Origin: Clostridia bacterium
GTDB lineage: Bacteria; Bacillota; Clostridia; Oscillospirales; CAG-272
DNA length: 42,482 nt
Assembly: GCA_017411785.1 (NCBI GenBank)
Contig: JAFQPL010000010.1
Span: 1-42,482, forward strand
Direction of reading: 5' to 3'
The translations under genes were made by a program, and so were the position numbers. Below the pieces are notes generated by a model. The model ran no database searches, had not been told where the DNA came from, and saw only the letters and a list, made by a program, of their open reading frames with translations. This document shows positions 173 through 31,385 of the stretch, piece by piece. How positions within the stretch are numbered: position 1 is the first letter of the stretch; the number at the start of each line of letters is the position of its first letter.

Positions 173-1610
173 CGTAGGTTGTGATGCTTTAACAATGTCA
201 GAGCTTGCAAAGATGTGCGGCGGAATGCTTTGTCTTGCGGGCGGACAGAATAACAGAGATATTCCGTTCAATACGGTATGCACCGATTCGCGTGAGACCG
301 AAAAGGGCTCGCTTTTCGTGGCACTTGACGGTGAACGAGTTGACGGACATGATTATATAGGCGCAGCGCTTTCTCACGGAAGTGAATGTATACTTTGCGA
401 GCGTATTCCCGATGCTCTTACCGATAAAAGATACGCGGCTTTGGTTGTTGATGATACGCTTCAGGCGGTAGGTGAGCTTGCAAAGGCGTATGACCGCAGA
501 ATAAATAACAAAAAGGTTGCCATAACGGGAAGCGTTGGAAAGACTACTACCAAGGAATTCGTTGCGGCAGTGCTTTCCGAAAATCTTCGTTTACATAAGA
601 CCGAGGGAAATTATAACAGTACGCTCGGTATGCCTCTTTCTCTTCTTGCGATGAAAAATGATACTCAGGTATCGGTTCTCGAGATGGGAATGAGCAATCT
701 CGGAGAGATAGAATATCTTTCCAGAATTGCAGAGCCTGATATAGCTATAATAACTAATATCGGCTCGTCGCATATGGAGTATCTCGGCAGCCGCGAGAAT
801 ATATGCAGAGCTAAGCTTGAGATAGTCAAGGGACTTAAGAGCGACGGAATATTGCTTCTGAACGGTGACGAAAAGCTTTTGCGCAATCGTGAGGAGCTTG
901 ACGGAAAAACTTATAAATATATAGGATTTTCCGCGGACTGCGATGTCAGAGCGGAGAATGTACATATCGGTATTGATAAAACTTATTTTGACGTTTGCTA
1001 TGACGGTAAAACAATAAAGAACGTTTCTATACCGATAATTGGCGAGCATTACGTTTATGCCGCGCTTTTCGCTTACGCTGTCGGAATAAATATGCAGCTT
1101 TCCGATGAGGTCATAGCGAGAGGTCTTAATAATTTCAGATCTATAGGTATGCGCCAGACGATATTTAATGTTGGAGATATTACGGTAATCCAGGATTGCT
1201 ATAACGCGAGCCCTGAATCGATGAAGGCGTCTATAGACGTTCTTCGTTCTGTGGCGGCGCGTAAGCAAGGCGGTAGGATGACCGCTCTTCTTGGCGATAT
1301 GTATGAGCTTGGAGTATGCTCGGATGCGGCACACGAGAGCGTAGGCATTGAATTCGCACGAAAGGGCGGAGCGGCTCTTTATACATACGGTAAGCTTGCC
1401 GATATGATAGCGAGAGGTGCCGTTCTCGGCGGAATGAGCAATGAGGATATTTTCAGAAATCTTGACGTGAAGCGTCCCGATATAAGCGGAGAGATGCTTC
1501 TTAAAACGCTTCGCGCGGGCGACACGCTTCTTGTAAAGGCAAGCCGCGCGGCGAAGGCTGAGAATGTTATAGAATATCTCAAGGAGAACGAAGCAAGACT
1601 TCGCCATTGA
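162..1610 (+). CDS. murF: UDP-N-acetylmuramoyl-tripeptide--D-alanyl-D-alanine ligase
   Basis: It is a Mur ligase with P-loop ITGSVGKTTTKE, a DCYNASPESM block and a LGDMYELG C-terminal domain. The track ORF starts at 114, but ATG 162 (MKVNVG) follows AGGAAAGGGAAG and overlaps the murE stop, which suggests translational coupling. The exact start is uncertain. Confidence 0.85.
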   Translation: MKVNVGCDALTMSELAKMCGGMLCLAGGQNNRDIPFNTVCTDSRETEKGSLFVALDGERVDGHDYIGAALSHGSECILCERIPDALTDKRYAALVVDDTLQAVGELAKAYDRRINNKKVAITGSVGKTTTKEFVAAVLSENLRLHKTEGNYNSTLGMPLSLLAMKNDTQVSVLEMGMSNLGEIEYLSRIAEPDIAIITNIGSSHMEYLGSRENICRAKLEIVKGLKSDGILLLNGDEKLLRNREELDGKTYKYIGFSADCDVRAENVHIGIDKTYFDVCYDGKTIKNVSIPIIGEHYVYAALFAYAVGINMQLSDEVIARGLNNFRSIGMRQTIFNVGDITVIQDCYNASPESMKASIDVLRSVAARKQGGRMTALLGDMYELGVCSDAAHESVGIEFARKGGAALYTYGKLADMIARGAVLGGMSNEDIFRNLDVKRPDISGEMLLKTLRAGDTLLVKASRAAKAENVIEYLKENEARLRH

Positions 1611-2719: not shown

Positions 2720-4054
2720 GTGTTGATTTTGGATAACGAAAAAGAAAATCAAGCTATGCCCGAAGACGATTTTGAAAAGTCCGAGGAGATCGGTAAAGCT
2801 GAAAAAAAGAAAAAAGAGTCAAAGGTTAAAATAAAGTCTCTCTCGGCTCGCAACGAGGAAAGGCGGGAATACAAGGACGCTATCTACTATGAAAAGATAA
2901 GCGAGACAAAGCCTGATATAACAAAGCCTCTTAAAAAGGGAAGCATAGATATGTGGTTCTTGCTTTGGGCGATGATATTGCTTTGCTTTGGAATAGTAAT
3001 GTGCTATAGCGCGGGCGTGGTAGATGCAACGGAAAGTTATGATTCATCAACGCACTATCTTGTGAGAAACGTTTTGTTCAGCCTGATTGCTATAATAGCG
3101 ACTGTACCTTTTGTAATATTTGCGCGCCCTTGGTTTTGGAGAGCCTTCAGTATAGTTGCCTACGGTGTTGCGGTGATACTGCTTATAGCGGTATTGCTTG
3201 TGGGACACGTTGGAGGAGGCGCGGAAAGATGGATAGCAATAGGACCGATAACGATTCAGCCCTCTGAGATCGCAAAGCTTGCCATAGTAATGATCCTTGC
3301 GCTATATCTCGAGAAGCATGAAAAGCAGGTGAATTCTCTTCAAAAATTCGGCGGGCATTTCAAGCACGGATTCCTTATACCGATGATCTTTATAGGCGTT
3401 CTTTGCGCACTTATAATAGGTCAGCCTCATATCTCGGGAGTAATGATAGTTGGAATTATCGGACTCGCGGTTATGTTTATGGGCGGAACACGGCTTCGCT
3501 GGATATTTATGCTCCTCGGTTTTATAGGAGTTGCTCTTATAATTCTTGTAACGGTCTTCTCGAGCTATGCTCAGGCGAGATTGGATATATGGTTACATAT
3601 CGATGAAATGGAAGAGCTCGGCGATGCGTGGCAGACGCTTCAGGGACTTAATGCTATCGGTTCCGGCGGATTTTTCGGTCTGGGCCTCGGCGCGAGCCGT
3701 CAAAAATATGGCTACGTTCCCGAGCCGCAGAACGATTTTATTTTTACTATAATCTGCGAGGAGCTTGGCTTTGTCGGAGCATTTGGATTAGTCTTCCTTT
3801 TTGCGCTTCTCATTTGGAGAGGAATAAAGATAGGACAAAACGCTCCCGATAAATTCTCGGCGCTTGTAGTATGGGGTCTTACCTTTAAAATTGCGCTTCA
3901 GGTGGCAATGAATATTGCCGTTGTAACTAATATGATGCCTAATACGGGAATTTCGCTTCCGTTCTTTTCGGCGGGAGGCTCTGCGCTTATGCTGCAGATA
4001 TTTGAAATAGGCATAATTCTTTCTATATCGCGATTTTCAACCCAGAAAAAATAA
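2720..4054 (+). CDS. ftsW: SEDS-family peptidoglycan glycosyltransferase (FtsW/SpoVE/RodA type) with a charged N-terminal extension of about 75 aa
   Basis: SEDS hallmarks are present: QPSEIAKL, NAIGSGGFFGLGLG, P...DFIF, GISLPFFSAGGSA. The GTG at 2720 overlaps the GGAGG RBS, so TTG 2729 or ATG 2756 may be the true start. Confidence 0.85.
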   Translation: MLILDNEKENQAMPEDDFEKSEEIGKAEKKKKESKVKIKSLSARNEERREYKDAIYYEKISETKPDITKPLKKGSIDMWFLLWAMILLCFGIVMCYSAGVVDATESYDSSTHYLVRNVLFSLIAIIATVPFVIFARPWFWRAFSIVAYGVAVILLIAVLLVGHVGGGAERWIAIGPITIQPSEIAKLAIVMILALYLEKHEKQVNSLQKFGGHFKHGFLIPMIFIGVLCALIIGQPHISGVMIVGIIGLAVMFMGGTRLRWIFMLLGFIGVALIILVTVFSSYAQARLDIWLHIDEMEELGDAWQTLQGLNAIGSGGFFGLGLGASRQKYGYVPEPQNDFIFTIICEELGFVGAFGLVFLFALLIWRGIKIGQNAPDKFSALVVWGLTFKIALQVAMNIAVVTNMMPNTGISLPFFSAGGSALMLQIFEIGIILSISRFSTQKK

Positions 4055-4075
4055 TAATACTTATAGGTGGATTTA

Positions 4076-5206
4076 ATGAGAGTTTTGTTTAGCGGAGGAG
4101 CATCGGGAGGACACGTAAATCCCGCGCTCGCTATAGCGGATATAATAAAAGCAAATTATCCCGATTCCGAGATTGCCTTTGTCGGTACGCCTTACGGCAT
4201 TGAAAATTCAATAGTTCCGCAGGCGGGATATAAGCTTTATAAGATAAAAATAGAGGGTGTAAACGGAAAGAAGGGGCTTGGAAAGCTAAAGGCATATGCC
4301 CGAGCATTTACCGCTCAATTTTCGGCGAAAAAGGTTATAAAGGAGTTTAAGCCCGATATAGTGATCGGAACGGGCGGATACGCCTGCTGGCCTGCGCTGA
4401 AAGCCGCGGTCGAGGCGAGAATTCCCACTATGCTTCATGAATCTAACTCAATGCCGGGAATGGCAGTAAGAAGACTTCAAAATGACGTTGATGTTATAAT
4501 GACTAATTTTGACAGCACAAAGGATAACCTTGATCCTACGGCTAATGTTGTAAAGGTAGGAAATCCTGTACGAAGCCAAGGCTTGTCGCTCACAAGAGCG
4601 TCAGCGCGCGAAAAGCTTGGTATAGACGCTGAAAAATTTGTTGTGCTTTCTTTTGGCGGAAGTCTTGGGGCTGAATGCCTTAACGATGTTGCTGTCGAAT
4701 ATATGAAGAATTTTGCACTCGCGCATGAAAATGTGATTGCTTATCACGTGGGCGGAAAAAATTATTACGAGGACGCAAAGCGTAAGCTTGAGGATAATAA
4801 GCTTCTTGAGAATAATAAAAATGTACTTATAAGCTTTACAAACGAGTTGCTTGTTTATATGGCGGCGGCAGACGTTGTTATATGCAGAGCGGGAGCGATG
4901 ACTCTCACAGAGGTGGCAAGAATGGGTAAGGCGGCCGTTATTATTCCTTCGGTCAACGTTACCGACGGACACCAATATAAAAACGCAAAGTCGCTTGCTG
5001 ACGGCGGTGCGGCTATTATGGTAGAGGAATCCGAACTAAAGAACGGGGCTAAAGTAAGTGAGCTTCTTGAACGATTTTATAATGACGTTGATTTTCGCAT
5101 GGAAATGTCCGCGAGGATAAAGGATTTTGCGGACGAGGATGTTGAAAAGAAGATATTGCAAAATATAAGGACGTTGCTTGACAGTTATAAGAAAATAGTA
5201 AAATAA
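4076..5206 (+). CDS. murG: undecaprenyldiphospho-muramoylpentapeptide beta-N-acetylglucosaminyltransferase
   Basis: The N-terminal GGASGGHVNPALAIA glycine loop, GTGGY, and the C-terminal RAGAMTLTE and Q..NA motifs match MurG (GT28). ATG 4076 is preferred over the track GTG at 4067. Confidence 0.9.
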   Translation: MRVLFSGGASGGHVNPALAIADIIKANYPDSEIAFVGTPYGIENSIVPQAGYKLYKIKIEGVNGKKGLGKLKAYARAFTAQFSAKKVIKEFKPDIVIGTGGYACWPALKAAVEARIPTMLHESNSMPGMAVRRLQNDVDVIMTNFDSTKDNLDPTANVVKVGNPVRSQGLSLTRASAREKLGIDAEKFVVLSFGGSLGAECLNDVAVEYMKNFALAHENVIAYHVGGKNYYEDAKRKLEDNKLLENNKNVLISFTNELLVYMAAADVVICRAGAMTLTEVARMGKAAVIIPSVNVTDGHQYKNAKSLADGGAAIMVEESELKNGAKVSELLERFYNDVDFRMEMSARIKDFADEDVEKKILQNIRTLLDSYKKIVK

Positions 5207-5232: not shown

Positions 5233-6099
5233 ATGAAAAAAGCCGGGAGCAAGAAAAACAACGAAAGAGTCAGAAGAGTGCTTTTAAGTAAGCAGTTTTG
5301 CATAAGCGTTCTCGTTGTAATGAGCCTTCTGGCTTTTATTTGCCTTGTTAAGCTTGTACTGGGATTTATGCCTGTAAGTAATTTTACATACAAGGGAGAA
5401 ACGCATTATGATATAAGCGAGCTTATAAATGCGTCGGGAATTCGCAGCGGCGACCGCTTATACAAGATAGACGAAAAGGCGGCAGTGGCAAGGATGGTAA
5501 GAGAATGTCCGTATCTTAAGACCGTGAAAATAGAAAAGAAATTTCCTAATACGGTATGCTTTGCCGTTGAAGAGCAGGAGCCCGGATGGTATATGCAGAT
5601 AGGAAATGATTTTTACGGACTTGATTTTGACCTCAAGGTGTTGCTTGAGACTTATCTTGAGCAGGATTTTATTGACAGAGGTCTAACAAAGCTTGTACTT
5701 CCCGAAATCGAGTCTGTGGTAGTCGGAGAGCTTCCCGAATTCGCGAGTGACGATGAGCAGCTCATAAAGGAAAGCTTGAAGATAGTTGATGCCTTCAGAA
5801 CTCACGATATAAAGAAAAGGCTCACGGGGCTTGATATCTCAAACAGATTTGAAATAAAGCTGGAGATAGATAACAGCTATGAGGTCTACTTTGGAGATAT
5901 GGTGAGCTTTGATATGAAAATGAAGTTCCTTGCGGCAGTATTGGAAAAAGCGGAGACGGACGGAGCCTCGGGAGGACGCATAACCTGGGGGGACGATAAC
6001 TTCGTTTTGAAAAAGGAGTATTCTCAAAAGGACGAGGACGAGGACGGCACAAAGACTCCCGAAAAGCCGAAGGAAGACCTTTTTGAAGGGGAAGATTAA
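5233..6099 (+). CDS. ftsQ: cell division protein FtsQ/DivIB (POTRA domain) with an acidic C-terminal tail
   Basis: It has a single N-terminal TM helix followed by a POTRA-like block (LKTVKIEKKFPNTVCFAVEEQEP). Its position between murG and ftsZ fits. Confidence 0.7.
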   Translation: MKKAGSKKNNERVRRVLLSKQFCISVLVVMSLLAFICLVKLVLGFMPVSNFTYKGETHYDISELINASGIRSGDRLYKIDEKAAVARMVRECPYLKTVKIEKKFPNTVCFAVEEQEPGWYMQIGNDFYGLDFDLKVLLETYLEQDFIDRGLTKLVLPEIESVVVGELPEFASDDEQLIKESLKIVDAFRTHDIKKRLTGLDISNRFEIKLEIDNSYEVYFGDMVSFDMKMKFLAAVLEKAETDGASGGRITWGDDNFVLKKEYSQKDEDEDGTKTPEKPKEDLFEGED

Positions 6100-6158
6100 C
6101 TTAACTGTTGTTTTTGTAAAATATTTTGTTAAAATATCGTAAAATTTTCAAAAACCTA

Positions 6159-6187
6159 TTGCAAAAAAACGTTTTTTATATTATTAT
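6159..6187 (+). promoter_or_regulatory. sigma-A-type promoter of ftsZ copy 1 (TTGCAA-17-TATTAT)
   Basis: TTGCAA lies at 6159-6164 and TATTAT at 6182-6187. The block CTATTGCAAAAAA...TATATTATTAT recurs upstream of ftsZ copy 2. Confidence 0.55.
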
Positions 6188-6238
6188 AATATATAGTATT
6201 ATTATCTTACACGTATATTTTTCAGGAGGAAGTTTGAA

Positions 6239-7279
6239 ATGGGTTTTGAGTATTACGATAACTGCGAAAGCGGAGTTTGCATAAAGGTCGTCGGTGTAGG
6301 CGGAGGCGGAAACAACGCGGTAAACCGTATGGTCAGCGACGGCGTAAAGGGCGTAGAATTTATTGCGGTAAACACGGACCGTCAAGCTCTTAAAAGCTCA
6401 CTTGCCGGCCGTAAGGTCGTTATAGGCGAGAAGATAACCAAGGGCTTTGGCGCGGGCGCTAAGCCTGAAATCGGAGCGCTCTCGGCAGAGGAGTCTATAG
6501 ACGAGATAAAGGCAGCTCTCAGCGGTGCGGATATGGTATTTGTAACTGCGGGAATGGGAGGCGGAACCGGAACGGGCGCGGCTCCTGTTGTAGCAAAGGT
6601 TGCGCATGATATGGATATACTTACCGTGGGTATAGTAACCAAGCCCTTTGAGTTTGAAGGTAAGAGAAGAATGGCTCAGGCGGAGCAGGGTATCGAGGAG
6701 TTTGCAAAGTACGTTGATTCCTTGGTCGTTATTCCCAACGAGCGTCTTAAATATATTTCCGAAAACAGAATAACCCTCTTTAATGCTTTCTCCGAGGCAG
6801 ACGGAATTCTCCGCAAGGGTGTTCAGTCTATATCCGAGCTTATTAATGTGTCTGCGTTTATTAATCTTGACTTTGCAGACGTTACCTCGGTAATGAATAA
6901 TTCAGGACTTGCGCATATGGGTATCGGAAGCGGTACAGGTAAGGACAAAGCAGAGATGGCTGCCAAGGCGGCAATCTCGAGTCCGTTGCTTGAGACCTCT
7001 ATAAACGGAGCTATGGGTGTTATAATCAGCATTTCCGCATCTCCCGATATTGGACTTGAGGACGTTGATATAGCAGCGGGAATGGTAAGAGCGGAGTGTA
7101 ACGAGGACGCGAATATAATCTTCGGTGTCGGTTTTGATGAAAATCTCTCCGATGAGATGAGAATAACAGTAGTTGCGACCGGCTTTACAAAGGACGGAGA
7201 CAAGGATTCGGCTAAGTCTGCGAAGGATGACGCTAAAAAGGCTGCAAGCCCCGAGGATTTTCTTGACGGATTGTTTTAA
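6239..7279 (+). CDS. ftsZ: cell division GTPase FtsZ (paralog 1)
   Basis: Motifs present: [13 protein letters not shown], the tubulin signature GGGTGTG, the T7 loop NLDFADV, and the C-terminal peptide PEDFLDGLF. The RBS is AGGAGGAAG. Confidence 0.93.
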
Positions 7280-7296: not shown

Positions 7297-7338
7297 ATAG
7301 CGGTTTCTGCGTGCAGACCGCTATATTTATTTTTTTTG
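7297..7338 (+). terminator. intrinsic terminator after ftsZ copy 1
   Basis: The hairpin ATAGCGGT..CTG/CAGACCGCTAT is followed by ATTTATTTTTTTTG. Confidence 0.7.
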
Positions 7339-7368
7339 TAAAAAAGGGGAGAATTTTTAGTAAAACTA

Positions 7369-7397
7369 TTGCAAAAAATCAAAAAATATATTATTAT
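7369..7397 (+). promoter_or_regulatory. sigma-A-type promoter of ftsZ copy 2 (TTGCAA-17-TATTAT)
   Basis: TTGCAA lies at 7369-7374 and TATTAT at 7392-7397. The block is near-identical to the one at 6156-6187. Confidence 0.55.
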
Positions 7398-7436
7398 ATA
7401 AGTAATAGAAAAATTACGGTAAAGGAGCTTCAAAAA

Positions 7437-8450
7437 ATGAGTTACGAAAATGAATATGGCGTAAAAATAAAGGTCGTAGGAGTCGGCGGCGGCGGAAATA
7501 ATGCGGTCAACCGTATGATAGCTTCCGATGTAAAGGGCGTTGAGTTTATCGCAATAAATACCGATAAGCAGGCTCTTAAAAAGTCTCTTGCAACTACTCA
7601 GCTGGCAATTGGAGAAAAGATTACTAACGGATTTGGCGCAGGCTCAAATCCCGAGATAGGAAAGAGAGCTGCCGATGAGGCTTACGCTGAGATAAAGAAG
7701 CTTCTTACAGGCGCCGATATGGTGTTTATAACCGCGGGAATGGGCGGCGGAACAGGAACGGGTGCTACTCCCTTTGTTGCAAAGGCTGCAAAGGAGCTTG
7801 ATATACTTACGGTTGCGGTTGTGACCACTCCTTTTGCATTTGAGGGTAAAAAGAGAATGCTTCAGGCAGAGGTAGGTATAGCAGAGCTTGGTGAGTACGT
7901 TGATTCCTTGGTAGTTATTCCTAATGAGAGACTCAAGCTTGTTGCAGATTCAAGAATTTCTCTTGCAACGGCATTCTCAGAGGCAGACGACGTTCTTCGC
8001 AGAGGTGTTCAGTCTATATCCGATCTTATCAATAACCTTGGATTTATCAATATCGACTTTGCTGACGTAACCTCGATCCTTGAGCATTCAGGCGTTGCTT
8101 ATATGGGAATGGGTAAGGCAAGCGGTAAGGATAAGGCGCAGATCGCTTCCAATATGGCGATCTCCAGTCCTCTCATAGAGACCTCTATCAAGGGCGCAAA
8201 GGGCGTTATTATCAGTATCGCCGCATCCGCAGAGGTAGGACTTGAGGACGTTGATTTTGCCGCAAACGCAATAAGAAACGAGTGCAACGAGGATGCAAAT
8301 ATTATCTTCGGCGTTGCATTTGATCCTTCACTTGAGGATGAGATGAGAATTACTATTATCGCGGCAGGCTTTAACTCTAACGACGATAAGAAAGAAGAAA
8401 AGAAGGAAGCCGCTCCCGCAAGTGACGATTTCTTCGCAGGTCTGTTTTAA
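7437..8450 (+). CDS. ftsZ: cell division GTPase FtsZ (paralog 2)
   Basis: The start [27 protein letters not shown] follows the RBS AAAGGAG. It has GGGTGTG, NIDFADV and the C-terminal peptide SDDFFAGLF. The track ORF start at 7311 runs through the promoter and terminator and is rejected. Confidence 0.92.
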
Positions 8451-9694: not shown

Positions 9695-9712
9695 ATTTAA
9701 TAAACGGTGTAT

Positions 9713-9760
9713 AAAAAGCAGGCTGTCTCAAACGTGAGTTGAGACAGCCTGCTTTTTATA
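9713..9760. terminator. bidirectional intrinsic terminator between convergent genes
   Basis: AAAAAGCAGGCTGTCTCAA-loop-TTGAGACAGCCTGCTTTTT has an A-run on the 5' side and a T-run on the 3' side. Confidence 0.85.
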
Positions 9761-14470: not shown

Positions 14471-14641
14471 TCAGTCGGCAGTGGGAGCCTCAACAGGACA
14501 AGCCTCTGCGCAAGCGCCGCACTCGATGCACTCGTCTGCGTTTATCTCGTACTTGCCGTCGCCCTCGGTAATAGCGCTTACGGGGCAAGCATCTGCACAA
14601 GCGCCGCAAGCGATGCAAGCGTCTGTAATCTTGTATGCCAT
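14471..14641 (-). CDS. fdx: clostridial-type 2x[4Fe-4S] ferredoxin, 56 aa
   Basis: Manual reverse-complement translation gives MAYKITDACIACGACADACPVSAITEGDGKYEINADECIECGACAEACPVEAPTAD*. It contains two CxxCxxCxxxCP motifs, and a GGAGGT RBS lies upstream. The ORF is too short for the ORF track. The track ORFs at 14415-14762, 14423-14647 and 14490-14747 are shadows of it. Confidence 0.93.
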   Translation of the reverse strand: MAYKITDACIACGACADACPVSAITEGDGKYEINADECIECGACAEACPVEAPTAD

Positions 14642-20234: not shown

Positions 20235-20278
20235 AAAAGGGCTGTATTTGACTTCTTGCTTAAATCTGCCTATACCAT

Positions 20279-20317
20279 AAAAAACAGACACAGTAAAGCT
20301 TTACTGTGTCTGTTTTT
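20279..20317. terminator. bidirectional intrinsic terminator
   Basis: AAAAACAGACACAGTAA-AGC-TTTACTGTGTCTGTTTTT lies between convergent genes. Confidence 0.85.
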
Positions 20318-20319
20318 TA

Positions 20320-20901
20320 TTATTCCGCAAAGGTTATAGATTTTATAACAACGTTTTGCAAGGGCTTGTCCGCAGAGTTTGTTTCAACCGAAGCAATGGC
20401 GTCAACTACGTCCATACCGTCCTTTACCATTCCAAATGCCGCGTATTTTCCATTAAGATGAGCAGCCTTTTGATGGCAGATAAAGAACTGCGAGGATGCT
20501 GAATTCTTGTCATTTGAGCGAGCCATTGAGATAACTCCGCGGTCGTGCTTTAAGGAATTTCTGACTCCGTTTTCCGAGAATTCGCCCTTTATGTTTATTT
20601 CGTTTCCGTTTGCGTCGGTATTTCCGCCTGTGCCGTCACCGTTGGGGCAACCGCCCTGGATCATAAAACCTTCGATAACGCGGTGGAAGATAAGACCGTC
20701 GTAGAAGCCGTCGTTTACGAGGCTTTTAAAATTTTTTACGGTTATCGGAGCGATGTCGGGATAAAGCTCAACGGTTATTTTACCGTAATTTTCGACGTCG
20801 ATAACGACGGTGTTTGGCTTTGAATCGATTTCGTCCTTGCATGAGAAAAGGCAAGGCATAATAAAAGCAGTTACTAACAAAAGACAAATAATTTTTTTCA
20901 C
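20320..20901 (-). CDS. cyclophilin-type peptidyl-prolyl cis-trans isomerase, lipoprotein
   Basis: The signal peptide has the lipobox LFSC. Cyclophilin motifs are present: FHRVI.GFMIQGG, SMAR....NSASSQFFI. Confidence 0.88.
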   Translation of the reverse strand: MKKIICLLLVTAFIMPCLFSCKDEIDSKPNTVVIDVENYGKITVELYPDIAPITVKNFKSLVNDGFYDGLIFHRVIEGFMIQGGCPNGDGTGGNTDANGNEINIKGEFSENGVRNSLKHDRGVISMARSNDKNSASSQFFICHQKAAHLNGKYAAFGMVKDGMDVVDAIASVETNSADKPLQNVVIKSITFAE

Positions 20902-20972: not shown

Positions 20973-22070
20973 TTATTTGTTAAAAGTATTTATCCATTCA
21001 TTGCGCGCAAGCTCATATGTAAAAATTTGCGCGGCACGAGTTGGGTCGGAAAGCTCATCTGCATAAATGGATTTACCGTTTATCTGCCAGCCGTAAGGGT
21101 TTTCAAGCCTCAGCTTCTTTAGTGAATCGCAACCGACAAAGGTCTCCTCCCAAATGAATTTAACCGTATCGGGAATAGAGATGCTTTCGAGTGCGGAGCA
21201 ATACTTAAAGGCTTGCAGACCTATAGATGATAGATGCTTTGGCAGGGTAATATCTGTAAGCTTATCGCAGGAGAAAAAGGCTCGCCCGCCTATTACCTCG
21301 AGGCTTTGCGGCAAGTCTAAGCTTGAAATTGCCGAGCATTCGTAAAAGGCTTCGTTTCCGATAATACGCAGAGAGCCTTGATCTGAAAAGCTTACGGCAG
21401 AAAGTGAGGCGCATCCTCGGAAAGCGCCGCGTTCAATGCTTTTTAGCAGGCATCTGTCCGCAAATATAAGACTTTTAAGATGCTTGCAGGAGCTAAAGCT
21501 CCATTCTCCGAGATAAACTACGCTTGTGGGGATTTCAACCGAATTGAGAGAGGCGCCCGAAAAGGCGTAATCACCAATCGATCTAAGCGCTTGCGGAAGA
21601 TCGGCTTGTAGGATGCCACAGTCTGAAAAGGCGTATCTGCCGATAGAGATAAGACCTTTGGGTAATTCTATGTGCTCGAGGCTTTTGCATCCTATAAAAG
21701 TGTAATTGCTTATTTTGCTTAATTTGCGCGGAAGCGTTACCGATGAAAGAGCGGTACAAAAGCCGAATGCCCGTTTGCCTATTGAATTAACGGTATCGGG
21801 GATTGAAATTGATTTTAGGCTTGAGCAACGGTAAAACGCCTTTTCACCTATCTCAAGAAGATCTTCAGGAAGCTTTACCGAGATTATTTTATCGTGCTTG
21901 CAAAATGCAAAAGGCGCGATTTTTTTTACAGGAAATCCTTCATAGGAGTCTGCGATTACAATGTTGGATAAATCCTCATCACAACCCGTGATAGTGGCTA
22001 TACCGTTTTCTATAGTGTAGAAAATTCCCGCCGAGGAGCCCGAGCGTTGTATAGAATTGATTTCTTTCAT
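20973..22070 (-). CDS. BspA-type leucine-rich-repeat protein with no recognisable signal peptide
   Basis: It contains about 12 tandem ~23-aa LRR_5-like units (L..I.IP..V..IG..AF..C..L). The RBS is AAGGAGGAG. Confidence 0.8.
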   Translation of the reverse strand: MKEINSIQRSGSSAGIFYTIENGIATITGCDEDLSNIVIADSYEGFPVKKIAPFAFCKHDKIISVKLPEDLLEIGEKAFYRCSSLKSISIPDTVNSIGKRAFGFCTALSSVTLPRKLSKISNYTFIGCKSLEHIELPKGLISIGRYAFSDCGILQADLPQALRSIGDYAFSGASLNSVEIPTSVVYLGEWSFSSCKHLKSLIFADRCLLKSIERGAFRGCASLSAVSFSDQGSLRIIGNEAFYECSAISSLDLPQSLEVIGGRAFFSCDKLTDITLPKHLSSIGLQAFKYCSALESISIPDTVKFIWEETFVGCDSLKKLRLENPYGWQINGKSIYADELSDPTRAAQIFTYELARNEWINTFNK

Positions 22071-22091
22071 AGCTACTCCTCCTTTTTTGCT

Positions 22092-22120
22092 ATTATAGCA
22101 TAAAACCCTTTGTTTTTCAA
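22092..22120 (-). promoter_or_regulatory. near-consensus sigma-A promoter reading into the LRR gene (TTGAAA-17-TATAAT with TGn)
   Basis: On the minus strand, TTGAAA lies at 22120-22115 and TATAAT at 22097-22092, preceded by TGC. It directly abuts the repeat array. Confidence 0.65.
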
Positions 22121-22300
22121 GTGAAATATTCGGCGTTGCCGAATGTGAAATAATTCACTTTGTGAATTGTGAAATATTGCTACCTTTGGTCGCAATGTGA
22201 AATGAAATTCGCCACTTCACATTTGCGAAGCAAATATTTCACAGCGGAGCTATTTCACTTGGCGGAGCCATATTTCACTTGCCGAAGGCGAATTTCGTTG
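22121..22300. repeat. GTGAAAT/ATTTCAC motif plus mini-hairpin array (copy 1 of a two-copy element)
   Basis: GTGAAAT occurs at 22121, 22145, 22169 and 22197. The complement ATTTCAC occurs at 22236, 22252 and 22272. Spacers are short self-complementary segments (CGGCGTTGCCG, ATTTGCGAAGCAAAT, TGGCGGAGCCA, GCCGAAGGC). The array is homologous to 30545-30757 in inverted orientation. Confidence 0.85.
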
Positions 22301-22342
22301 AAAAAAGCACACATTTGTCTGCTGACAAATGTGTGCTTTTTT
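22301..22342 (-). terminator. intrinsic terminator flush with the tRNA-Gln 3' end (part of the repeated element)
   Basis: The sequence is AAAAAAGCACACATTTGTC-TGCT-GACAAATGTGTGCTTTTTT. It is almost identical to the hairpin at 30500-30544. Confidence 0.85.
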
Positions 22343-22343
22343 C

Positions 22344-22417
22344 TGGCTGGGGTGGAAAGAATCGAACTTTCCCGGCGAGAGTCAAAGTCTCGTGTCCTAC
22401 CACTAGACTACACCCCA
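22344..22417 (-). tRNA. tRNA-Gln (anticodon UUG)
   Basis: The reverse complement TGGGGTGTAGTCTAGTGGTAGGACACGAGACTTTGACTCTCGCCGGGAAAGTTCGATTCTTTCCACCCCAGCCA folds as a cloverleaf. The acceptor stem is TGGGGTG/CACCCCA, the anticodon stem CGAGA/TCTCG, the anticodon loop CTTTGAC and the T-arm GAAAG-TTCGATT-CTTTC. CCA is encoded. Confidence 0.9.
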
Positions 22418-30308: not shown

Positions 30309-30383
30309 GCTGGTGTGGCTCAATGGCAGAGCAGCTGATTTGTAATCAGCAGGTTGTTGGTTCGACTCCGATCACCAGCTCCA
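30309..30383 (+). tRNA. tRNA-Thr (anticodon UGU)
   Basis: GCTGGTGTGGCTCAATGGCAGAGCAGCTGATTTGTAATCAGCAGGTTGTTGGTTCGACTCCGATCACCAGCTCCA folds as a cloverleaf. The acceptor stem is GCTGGTG/CACCAGC, the anticodon stem GCTGA/TCAGC, the anticodon loop TTTGTAA and the T-loop TTCGACT. CCA is encoded. Confidence 0.9.
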
Positions 30384-30414: not shown

Positions 30415-30499
30415 GGGGGATTTCCCGAGCGGCCAAAGGGGGCAGACTGTAAATCTGTTGTCACTGACTTCGGTGGTCCGAATCCACCATCCCCCACCA
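30415..30499 (+). tRNA. tRNA-Tyr (anticodon GUA), class II with a long variable arm
   Basis: The sequence is GGGGGATTTCCCGAGCGGCCAAAGGGGGCAGACTGTAAATCTGTTGTCACTGACTTCGGTGGTCCGAATCCACCATCCCCCACCA. The acceptor stem is GGGGGAT/ATCCCCC, the anticodon loop CTGTAAA, the variable stem GTC/GAC and the T-arm GGTGG-TCCGAAT-CCACC. The T-loop has C at position 55. Confidence 0.85.
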
Positions 30500-30544
30500 G
30501 AAAAAAGCACACATTTGTCTACTAAGACAATGTGTGCTTTTTTC
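30500..30544 (+). terminator. intrinsic terminator flush with the tRNA-Tyr 3' end (part of the repeated element)
   Basis: The sequence is GAAAAAAGCACACATTTGTC-TACTAA-GACAATGTGTGCTTTTTT. It is near-identical to 22301-22342 on the opposite strand. Confidence 0.85.
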
Positions 30545-30757
30545 AACGAAATTTGCCCTGCGGGCAAGTGAAATAGCTGTGCTGTGAAATATTTGCTTCG
30601 CAAATGTGAAATATTCGCTGACGCGAATGTGGGCAAATTTCATTTCACATCGAACAGAGCCGTAGGCGACGTGAGATATTTCACAATGCGCAATAGCACA
30701 TTATTTCACGTTTTGCGCAAGCAAAACATTTCACTGCAACCGCAGGCGATGCATCAT
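30545..30757. repeat. GTGAAAT/ATTTCAC motif plus mini-hairpin array (copy 2)
   Basis: GTGAAAT occurs at 30568, 30584 and 30606. ATTTCAC occurs at 30642, 30678, 30703 and 30728. Spacers form short hairpins (TTGCCCTGCGGGCAA, ATTTGCTTCGCAAAT, ATTCGCTGACGCGAAT, TTTTGCGCAAGCAAAA). Confidence 0.85.
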
Positions 30758-30786
30758 TTGACAAACAAGCGATTTCGTGATATAAT
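30758..30786 (+). promoter_or_regulatory. consensus sigma-A promoter reading into the small lipoprotein gene (TTGACA-17-TATAAT with TGn)
   Basis: TTGACA lies at 30758-30763 and TGA-TATAAT ends at 30786. It directly abuts the repeat array. Confidence 0.7.
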
Positions 30787-30810
30787 AACGGAAAATGAGG
30801 AGCTGCGATT

Positions 30811-31266
30811 ATGAAAAAAATGTTATTTATTTTGTTTGCAACTGTCCTGTTGTTAAGTATGACAGCTTGTAACGGTTATAATGGAATTATGCGAGAACAT
30901 CTTAGCGATGAAGATAATTATCAAGATATCGAGGCAACATTTTGCTCATATAAAGAAGCCGACGGCCGAATTTATCTGTATGTTTCCGTTGAGGACAAAT
31001 CAGCTTTTGATTCTTCCGAAGCGAACAGTGAAGAAATCAGATTGGAATTAGTGGGTGATAATTGCAATGTTCTTAGCGAAGTCCTTGCAAAAGAAGAGAT
31101 ATGCGAGGGCGATAGAATTACTGTAAAATGCTCGACGTGGATCTATATGGATTCAACGTTTTACTATGTCGCCGAAATAAAAAATCAAGATAAAATATTT
31201 TTATCGTTTGATGATGGCTTAAAAAACATCATAAAGTATGTTAACGATAATAAAGCTTTACTTTGA
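30811..31266 (+). CDS. small lipoprotein of unknown function (151 aa)
   Basis: The signal peptide MKKMLFILFATVLLLSMTAC carries a lipobox. The RBS is GAGGAG. I recognised no conserved catalytic motif. Confidence 0.65.
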   Translation: MKKMLFILFATVLLLSMTACNGYNGIMREHLSDEDNYQDIEATFCSYKEADGRIYLYVSVEDKSAFDSSEANSEEIRLELVGDNCNVLSEVLAKEEICEGDRITVKCSTWIYMDSTFYYVAEIKNQDKIFLSFDDGLKNIIKYVNDNKALL

Positions 31267-31346
31267 ATTGTCCTTGTAATCTGTATTACGCACCTTTTTT
31301 TCGTTTTTACCTACACCTGCGCACCGTTTGCGCGTTTCTTCGCAAC

Positions 31347-31385
31347 AAAAAACGCACTTTTGTCTTTCGACAAAGGTGCGTTTTT
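31347..31385. terminator. bidirectional intrinsic terminator between convergent genes
   Basis: The sequence is AAAAAACGCAC(T)TTTGTC-TTTC-GACAAA(G)GTGCGTTTTT. Confidence 0.8.

Follow-up and report, generated by a model that had tools for sequence, protein, structure and literature searches.

The intergenic stretch at 30500-30786 of contig JAFQPL010000010.1 from a Clostridia bacterium (GCA_017411785.1), analysed here as a window of 42,482 nt and referred to as copy 2 since a related stretch (copy 1) lies at 22071-22343, represents, in complete form, an intergenic module that is widespread in uncultured gut Clostridia and anchored to terminators. Each half of the module matches the Rfam family RF01706 ("Gut-1 RNA") and the two halves do so on convergent strands; each of the two modules of the window is therefore a convergent pair of Gut-1 motifs. 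The motif itself was already known and is not new. We tentatively favour, at somewhat less than even confidence, a reading in which the array would act as unpaired DNA, serving as a docking platform for an Avd-like protein of the TIGR02436 family.

The RF01706 covariance model scores 63.5 bits at 30544-30617 (+), 55.2 bits at 22231-22300 (-), and 52.3 bits at 22119-22208 (+), all above the gathering score of 50, and 44.9 bits at 30637-30736 (-), which is under the gathering score of 50 with an E value of 7e-8; the core of copy 2 thus spans 30544-30736. This identity was missing from the preliminary description of the DNA, which had been made from the sequence alone. Gut-1 was described in 2010 by Weinberg et al. 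from 43 human-gut metagenome sequences, without organism or function, and was rated 'RNA: Y' and not cis-regulatory (PMC2864571); no publication on it after 2010 was found in the literature searched. The published consensus, CAAUGAAAU, hairpin, GUGAAAU, hairpin, GUGAAAU, hairpin, GUGAAAU, and the gut environment agree with the modules studied here. Nevertheless, the published motif comprises only one half on one strand and comes with no organism, context or function, whereas here we find a convergent pair closed by a long-range helix, a favoured strand opposite to the Rfam orientation, and loop statistics that point to DNA. The flanks of the original seed sequences already show a tRNA 3' end and a terminator upstream and reversed heptamers downstream, and some seeds carry GTGATAT/ATATCAC as the word. 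What has been an orphan 'RNA' in Rfam since 2010 can now be placed in defined gut Clostridia, with its full anatomy and an address after tRNA terminators.

Both copies show the same order of elements: a tRNA terminator opens the module, four heptamers of GTGAAAT type lead to a centre, and four ATTTCAC heptamers lead from there to a promoter. Copy 2 follows tRNA-Thr (30309-30383, +) and tRNA-Tyr (30415-30499, +), both found by ARAGORN and the Rfam tRNA model, the latter being its upstream anchor with a G after the CCA. The next element is a bidirectional intrinsic-terminator-like hairpin with an A-tract, a hairpin and a T-tract (G-AAAAAAGCACACATTTGTC...GACAATGTGTGCTTTTTT-C, 30500-30544, +), recognised from the sequence and belonging to the repeated module, since in a sequence comparison this region is 80-97% complementary to 22287-22367; the terminator position is occupied likewise in most instances of the census described below. 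The terminator is followed by CAACGAAAT. The left half (30544-30636, +), supported by its Rfam match and its DNA fold, consists of a first heptamer g0, ACGAAAT (30546-52), a hairpin H0 (TTGCCC-TGC-GGGCAA), three GTGAAAT heptamers (30568, 30584, and 30606) each with a short perfect hairpin after it (H1-H3), a partial GTG, and a GGCAA copy of X', the arm of the long-range helix treated below. It is bracketed by the long-range inverted repeat GAAATTTGCCC (30548-58) / GGGCAAATTTC (30631-41). The centre reads GTG-GGCAA-ATTTC, with the switch ...GGCAAATTTCATTTCACAT present. The right half (30637-30736, Gut-1 strand -), recognised from the Rfam match, the heptamer positions, and compensatory changes in hairpins H4-H6, begins with c0 (ATTTC), followed by ATTTCAC at 30642, 30678, 30703, and 30728 with the three hairpins H4-H6 between. 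Beyond it lies the promoter TTGACA-17-TATAAT (30758-30786, +, sigma-70-type, 12/12 match) of a probable lipoprotein gene of 151 aa (30811-31266, +), with a signal peptide and a cysteine and without a family match, which forms the accessory gene at the variable right edge.

In copy 1, the anchor is tRNA-Gln (22344-22417, -; ARAGORN and Rfam tRNA), followed by a terminator hairpin recognised from the sequence and from alignment to copy 2 (22300-22343, -). The left half (22209-22300, -), which includes the 55.2-bit Rfam match, is of a TTCGCC subtype with TGGCGA just ahead of the centre, and the right half (22119-22208, +), supported by its own match and its DNA fold, has four heptamers and three perfect hairpins of 7-9 bp. 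The promoter TTGAAA-17-TATAAT (22092-22120, -, 11/12 match), whose -35 hexamer begins exactly at the end of the last heptamer, drives a gene for a BspA-type leucine-rich repeat (LRR) protein (LRR_5; 20973-22070). Copy 2 and the reverse complement of 22060-22355 align with 79% column identity and unit-sized indels, the longest common blocks being 46 nt at 96% and 29 nt at 97%. Heptamers are 16-36 bp apart, with the intervals filled by hairpins, and 14 of the 19 GTGAAAT sites in the window fall inside the two arrays; the chance expectation for the whole window is 6.6 +/- 2.5, and 19 sites were reached in 0/100 shuffles. All of this agrees with the preliminary description, which had treated the two stretches as copies of one module and had listed after tRNA-Tyr a G, a hairpin, heptamers, a switch, a promoter, and an open reading frame, every one of which is where it was placed. 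Equally sound were its remarks that the genes downstream are unrelated, here a BspA-type LRR protein and a protein without a family match, and that the spurious peptide SHLRSKYFTA.LFHL is common to both copies.

The census was carried out with a pattern spanning the centre, GTGAAAT-N15-45-ATTTCATTTCAC-N8-38-ATTTCAC, which is seeded with one heptamer class. It yielded 12 loci in viral contigs and at least 120 loci in species-representative genomes, and the 141 instances analysed are among the matches listed; all census genomes are metagenome-assembled genomes (MAGs), and because related sequences lack independence, the counts given here should not be read as probabilities. An earlier loose pattern of three gapped GTGAAAT words was unspecific, returning mostly chance matches and unrelated tandem repeats in viral contigs, and was replaced; the long one-directional tandem arrays with ATTTCAC at L012 1376-1961 and L059 7207-7864, both in viral contigs and without hairpins, are unrelated simple repeats of this kind (L numbers denote fetched loci). 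The genome matches listed all come from gut or rumen Clostridia, including Oscillospiraceae, Acutalibacteraceae, Ruminococcus, Christensenellaceae, and others. We rejected a phage-borne element, as the 12 viral-contig matches mostly lie 0.6-5 kb from contig ends beside tRNA remnants and represent host flank at prophage junctions rather than phage cargo.

Four left heptamers are present in 110 of the 141 instances and four right heptamers in 120, the first left heptamer usually being ACGAAAT, and this 4+4 architecture is kept in AT-rich through GC-rich genomes despite wholly different hairpin sequences (e.g. L013, L148, and L184). The module is one of many copies and, as the preliminary description had argued, not a by-product of a locus duplication. 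The suggestion of minisatellite-like evolution made there does not fit the constant unit number; the differences come from exchange between copies. Modules occur in tandem in L136, L168, L187, and L238 (three in a row, with a period of ~240-275 bp), and module-gene(s)-module layouts are found in L145 and L149, the latter with a 134-aa BspA-type LRR gene between two near-identical modules. A right-flank extension of ~150 nt, TATAYRCATTTGTGTCT...AATGCAGTGCTTGTCAAGAAAA, hairpin, TTTTCCTGTCGGTAGG, recurs in different genomes (L157, L158, L187 at ~5610-5870, and L259/L260 at ~4800-4950).

Of the 125 instances with enough flank for this test, 57 have a co-oriented tRNA whose end lies 31-59 nt upstream of g0, always on the GTGAAAT side, and 15 tRNA identities are represented. 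Among the array loci, a canonical array lies behind 52 of the 76 tRNA transcription-unit ends, and in a set chosen via the linked protein described below, not via the array, a tRNA is upstream in 30 of the 51 distinct loci. Anchoring to tRNA 3' ends, as claimed in the preliminary description together with a call for a census of tRNA 3' flanks, is therefore borne out as a strong preference, but what the module follows, more exactly, is a terminator or other hairpin behind a gene of any kind, and about half of the array copies have no intact tRNA. Many of these carry '...CCAG' tRNA remnants ahead of the terminator. Among the others, some lie behind protein genes and some behind a conserved hairpin that lacks a U-tract, GCGYAGTGCCCTTAAGGACACTRCGC, and takes the place of the terminator just upstream of g0 (L140, L146, L158, L187, L188, L209, and L247). 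An Rfam scan ahead of the non-tRNA copies returned tRNA and Gut-1 only and no other non-coding RNA. The module is hence better described as terminator-anchored, preferentially after tRNA genes. In L138, L149, and L197, the 3' end of an LRR gene, 'CCAG', a terminator, and an array follow one another in that order.

Several more tRNA-unit ends precede arrays of the same design built from other words, namely ATGAAGC/GCTTCAT, ATGAAAT/ATTTCAT, AATGATG/CATCATT, and ATCATCA/TGATGAT. Such other-word arrays are located at L211 ~3900-4350 (-), L252 140-560, L171 ~1180-1600 (-), L210 3785-4200, and L245 ~900-1318 (-), and upstream of position 2001 in L332-L348, with GTGATAT/ATATCAC among the words found across the listed loci; several of them precede a TIGR02436 gene. 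These observations point to an array superfamily with several 'specificities', sometimes two per genome.

The hairpins between the heptamers covary. RNAalifold on 28 non-redundant modules gave 27 pairs, with compensatory double changes in 22. In the resulting structure, the right half forms its three hairpins, and GAAAT+X at the left boundary pairs in a long-range helix with X'+ATTTC at the centre. This helix reaches at least 10 nt of contiguous complementarity in 102 of the 110 canonical instances, with 14 types of X, and the mean complementarity is 10.9 nt as compared with 7.1 nt for shuffled partners. As an inverted repeat of 11-13 bp it closes the left half, and since X' occurs twice, its formation is in competition with the local first hairpin. 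Folded as DNA, the copy-2 left half gives z = -3.8 to -4.9 with the closing helix formed, and the copy-1 right half gives z = -4.9 to -5.2. Correlated variants (ATGAAAT with ATTTCAT), used as a test of whether left and right heptamers pair by position, give a 2x2 table of 4/8/7/122, which is suggestive, although partners are inconsistent and lineages not independent.

The hairpins also carry a strand signature. Among hairpins with a single mismatch, A.C outnumbers G.T by 23 to 8 in the left half, whereas in the right half G.T outnumbers A.C by 25 to 4. The wobble-tolerant strand is in both halves the one reading ATTTCAC, giving a pattern that is mirror-symmetric about the centre and opposite to the Rfam orientation, and G.T/G.U make up only ~3% of stem pairs. 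When 331 distinct hairpins were read on the ATTTCAC strand, 85% had a 5'-C...G-3' closing pair. Triloops account for 195 of them (59%), with GNA in 136 (70%) and TNC, which equals GNA on the other strand, in 2/195; among 136 tetraloops, 100 (74%) are GNNA, divided between GNRA (51) and GNYA (49). These loop statistics were reproduced in an independent set. The ATTTCAC strand thus bears the c(GNA)g or c(GNNA)g loops on G-C-closed stems that are typical of mini-hairpin DNA. Indeed, the array loops match the motifs GCGNAGC and GCGNNAGC, which are extraordinarily stable and occur in the G4-type and the RSF1010 ssi priming signals as well as in the hairpin promoters of phage N4 (PMC13037366); the stability of d(GNA) loops is reported to depend on the closing pair (PMC3201870). 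In these signals, as in the arrays, such loops stand beside short conserved single-stranded words, and RSF1010 ssiA and ssiB likewise lie on opposite strands in an inverted arrangement. Nevertheless, they are phage- or plasmid-borne, each signal having a single hairpin and a defined primase or RNA polymerase, whereas Gut-1 arrays have four units per strand, chromosomal tRNA flanks, and no replication gene nearby.

The three open reading frames on either side of the 141 instances were clustered, and no gene family was found beside most arrays; the only recurrent family encodes a protein of ~115-119 aa matching PF05635 (23S_rRNA_IVP, E = 1.6e-27) and TIGR02436 ('four helix bundle protein', E = 4.7e-31), a family that the literature relates to Avd of diversity-generating retroelements (DGRs). 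This gene is present in 19 of 120 array loci, and in at least 11 arrays it starts ~52 nt past the last heptamer, with the -35 hexamer of its promoter abutting that heptamer. In the reverse direction, when 80 metagenome loci were fetched by protein similarity alone, a convergent array of at least 3+3 heptamers was found upstream of the gene in 60 of 65 upstream regions, as against 1 of 54 control regions. The heptamer classes in this test were GTGAAAT, ATGAAAT, and GTGATAT, the last being the class of the original Gut-1 seeds, and ATGAAGC is also linked to the gene. More generally, a promoter matching at least 10/12 positions lies within 25 nt of the last heptamer in 21 of 132 arrays, as compared with 5 of the 130 control windows. 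For 13 of these 21 arrays, including copy 1, the -35 hexamer starts exactly at the heptamer end (ATTTCAC|TTGAAA), and in copy 2 the promoter is 23 nt beyond the last heptamer. As judged from linkage only, a trans-acting factor with its sites would be expected to give this pattern, in which nearly every such gene has an array while the majority of arrays stand alone, and so would a master element with its derivatives.

The closest solved structure is PDB 2RLD (E = 5e-36), which has five chains per entry, as does 2GSC, and each half-array has four full heptamers and one partial heptamer. To our knowledge, the role of Avd in DGRs is the only known role of the large TIGR02436/PF05635 family, and we know of none for its stand-alone members. 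Among the 10 of 38 loci whose downstream open reading frames were read by eye, with no Pfam scan run, neither a reverse transcriptase nor a constant partner follows the Avd-like gene, the genes there being unrelated housekeeping or accessory genes, and annotation of defence systems with PADLOC gave no match; a DGR was rejected on both these observations. The linked gene shares the PF05635/TIGR02436 family, and its relatives the five chains per PDB entry, with Avd and with the S23p genes of 23S rRNA intervening sequences, which are also hairpin-flanked insertions tied to a stable-RNA gene. The differences are that no reverse transcriptase, template repeat or variable repeat is seen near the arrays, unlike in DGRs, and that the gene lies beside tRNA genes and not inside rRNA, unlike S23p.

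We hypothesize that the element, far from being an RNA gene, works as DNA. Downstream of the centre (3' of it), either strand would hold four ATTTCAC words between very stable c(GNA)g/c(GNNA)g mini-hairpins, so that an unpaired strand might display an ordered row of single-stranded heptamers kept apart by hairpins. Unpairing could arise from passage of the replication fork, or from supercoil-driven cruciform extrusion near a strong tRNA gene or promoter, and the heptamer row may then be the docking site of the small TIGR02436/PF05635 four-helix-bundle protein. Where the gene stands behind the array under the heptamer-abutting promoter, autoregulation or a 'master copy' arrangement is suggested, and the two copies of the window would be solo arrays ahead of accessory surface-protein genes, which might influence, or merely neighbour, the adjacent promoters. 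A narrower version, which we regard as rather doubtful, is that the arrays are a new chromosomal single-stranded or cruciform element whose heptamer rows are read by stand-alone TIGR02436 pentamers, the four full heptamers and one partial heptamer per half serving five subunits.

Several observations weigh against this hypothesis. The linkage between gene and array could just mean that, of all genes placed behind the promoter next to the array, this one is the most frequent. The Avd-like gene accompanies only ~9-16% of arrays, with none in the window, and the proteins are near neutral (pI 6.3-8.7), a weak support for nucleic-acid binding. An RNA read on the ATTTCAC strand would likewise fit the G.U tolerance and the GNRA-type loops, the argument for DNA leans by analogy on loop thermodynamics from the literature, and the ATCATCA/TGATGAT class (L245) has its polarity reversed relative to the tRNA. 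The one-class seed, the restriction to listed matches, the MAGs, and the kinship among sequences count on the same side. If the narrower version is true, the large orphan 'four helix bundle protein' family would gain its first cognate nucleic-acid target, and gut Clostridia would possess a protein-plus-array system controlling or diversifying accessory genes inserted at the promoter edge. In any case, the census questions whether Gut-1 is RNA, and it ties two 'function unknown' entries into one testable hypothesis.

The reading closest to the published one is that Gut-1 is a structured RNA, or a pair of them, made by terminator read-through or from a distant promoter, with the hairpins as RNA stems and the heptamers as single-stranded words that bind protein or RNA, for example as a sponge for an RNA-binding protein such as the Avd-like one. 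Avd proteins bind RNA in DGR systems, in agreement with such a role. The Rfam matches above the gathering score, the strong stem covariation, a wobble bias of the kind RNA selection would give, and the GNRA half of the tetraloops are all consistent with RNA, as is the rating of Weinberg et al., and the left terminator, being bidirectional, could end a leftward transcript. Nevertheless, wobbles and loops favour the strand opposite to Rfam in mirror image, whereas a single transcript would have one 'good' half only. The array begins right after an intrinsic terminator, and an internal sigma-70-like promoter (at least 10/12, either strand) was found in 0/125 arrays. The proportion of triloops and the equal frequency of GNYA and GNRA are atypical of structured RNAs and typical of DNA mini-hairpins (PMC13037366). 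Together with the few wobbles, these features are hard to reconcile with a dedicated RNA gene, though compatible with an RNA made by read-through, and we consider an RNA rather improbable. A selfish or neutral interspersed repeat, like the repetitive extragenic palindromes (REP) and bacterial interspersed mosaic elements (BIME, REPIN) of Proteobacteria or miniature inverted-repeat transposable elements (MITEs), seems to us unlikely. Its single-stranded DNA hairpins would be copied or homogenised by an enzyme acting in trans or by gene conversion, and would pile up after terminators without a host function. It would account for near-identical copies within a genome that differ between genomes (L145, L149, and L238), for the tandem copies, and for the exchange of left halves; the two inverted word-plus-hairpin sets resemble REP doublets, and gene-linked and solo copies stand in a ratio like that between REP-associated tyrosine transposases (RAYTs) and REPINs. 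The arrays are indeed extragenic, lie after genes or terminators, and consist of inverted pairs of a conserved 5' word with an imperfect palindrome, and recognition of single-stranded hairpins may, by analogy, be a further likeness. Against this, no recurrent transposase, RAYT or integrase is listed beside the arrays; for the Y1/HUH transposases this holds for the three open reading frames per side of the 141 instances, whole genomes not being covered and absence therefore not proven. The linked gene encodes a four-helix-bundle protein instead, array hairpins vary from unit to unit, copy number looks low, and both a fixed 4+4 design and a tRNA preference are seen. By eye, the boundaries of the inspected within-genome pairs show no target-site duplication, and both loci of the window are positionally stable among strains. 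Across genomes ranging from AT-rich to GC-rich, conservation of the 4+4 design and of the subtype sequences is accompanied by compensatory changes, pointing to purifying selection on a function. A MITE in particular was rejected, since the L145 and L149 pairs share sequence from the terminator to the last heptamer without a flanking direct repeat (by eye) and no empty site was found at the window loci among strains.

The array could also be read in duplex form as an operator or centromere-like site, with the heptamers as half-sites for a helix-turn-helix protein of the ParB/Noc/VirB kind and the palindromic spacers incidental or meant for a second factor. The TGGCGA ahead of the copy-1 centre equals the B-box TCGCCA of P1 parS reversed, the heptamer class covaries between halves, and the last heptamer abuts the -35 hexamer. 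GTGAAAT agrees with (A/G)(A/T)G(G)AAAT, the Box-A consensus of P1 ParB (PMC6410309), and P1 parS and VirB sites share with the arrays both orientations around a centre. A match of 6-7 of 7 heptamer positions is weak evidence, though, and this reading leaves hairpin spacers with compensatory changes and strand-specific loops unexplained; the spacing of 16-36 bp is filled by hairpins, and no ParA or ParB gene occurs among the window genes tested or in the neighbour clusters, on which ground a ParAB or origin-proximal centromere-type locus was rejected as well. The likeness is a resemblance only, and we judge the operator very unlikely. Least probable of all, and hardly credible, is an inverton, in which the left half would be flipped between its 11-13 bp inverted repeats and control the downstream surface-protein gene. 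The repeats GAAAT+X and X'+ATTTC do bracket the left half and the downstream genes do encode surface or accessory proteins, whereas the repeat arms covary, unlike recombinase sites kept constant in sequence, the segment they bracket does not include the promoter, and no flipped left half was seen in any fetched array-related locus, by which the inverton is weakly refuted. A CRISPR array was rejected, the repeats being 7 nt with an orientation flip at the centre and 'spacers' that are conserved palindromes. An integron attC or cassette array was rejected as well, with no recurrent tyrosine recombinase beside the arrays and the strain integrase targeting the tRNA-Tyr gene itself; right-edge gene turnover and the module-gene-module layouts (L145, L149) are only reminiscent of cassettes.

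Comparison among strains of the window's own species shows which parts of the locus move. At the tRNA-Tyr locus, compared among contigs encoding an identical RpsR, four states were found. The first is the arrangement of the window. In the second (L261), the terminator and right half are the same, the left half is of an AAATCCC subtype, and the lipoprotein gene with its promoter is absent, ~70 nt of unrelated sequence (L261 4900-5000 versus window 30751-31330) replacing them right after ...TGCAACCGCAGGCGAT. The third (L259 and L260) has yet another left half, with a 45-nt insertion, GGGGTTCCCCGAAGCGAGTGCGCGAGCTTTTGGGGTTCCC, between its last hairpin and the centre (~4640-4700), and different downstream genes. 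In the fourth (L121, L128, L263, and L265), an integrase-bearing element is inserted in tRNA-Tyr and the array is kept at the far junction. This integrative element encodes a tyrosine integrase of 300 aa (L121 1-1200, L128 1-1400, L129, and L263/L265 ~4700-4800). One of its junctions has foreign DNA immediately behind an intact tRNA. Across the other, the order is integrase gene, a tRNA-Tyr 3' half that begins at the anticodon loop, terminator, and array. The array as the integrase target was rejected, given that recombination inside tRNA-Tyr leaves the array intact.

At the tRNA-Gln locus of copy 1, some strains have a chimeric left half, with distal units of copy-1 type and the proximal unit and centre of copy-2 type, while the LRR gene was present in all strains compared and no empty site was seen. 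The window copies represent two distinct left-half subtypes, each shared with other genomes (e.g. L159 and L149), and these shared subtypes together with exchange explain the unit-wise indels better than minisatellite slippage. The preliminary description had proposed comparing empty and occupied sites between strains for signs of mobility; the arrays prove positionally stable at both loci, whereas the right-edge genes vary. Arrays thus stay put, whereas copies swap their left halves and genes come and go at the right edge. In annotation, the arrays generate spurious open reading frames, and in gut MAGs they mark hotspots of accessory-gene turnover and prophage-adjacent tRNA sites.

Some further repeats were noted in the window. 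Perfect palindromes with 22-nt arms and A/T tracts at 9710-9760, 20277-20320, and 31348-31385 lie between convergent genes, where they probably act as terminators in both directions; in general type they resemble the terminator at the start of each module. Tandem paralogous genes at 6239-7279 and 7311-8450 have ~71% identity over 300 nt and similar upstream regions (6124-6188 and 7334-7398), and a GC-rich stretch contains a 46-nt direct repeat (14493-14538 and 14580-14625) with 83% identity and a spacing of 87 nt.

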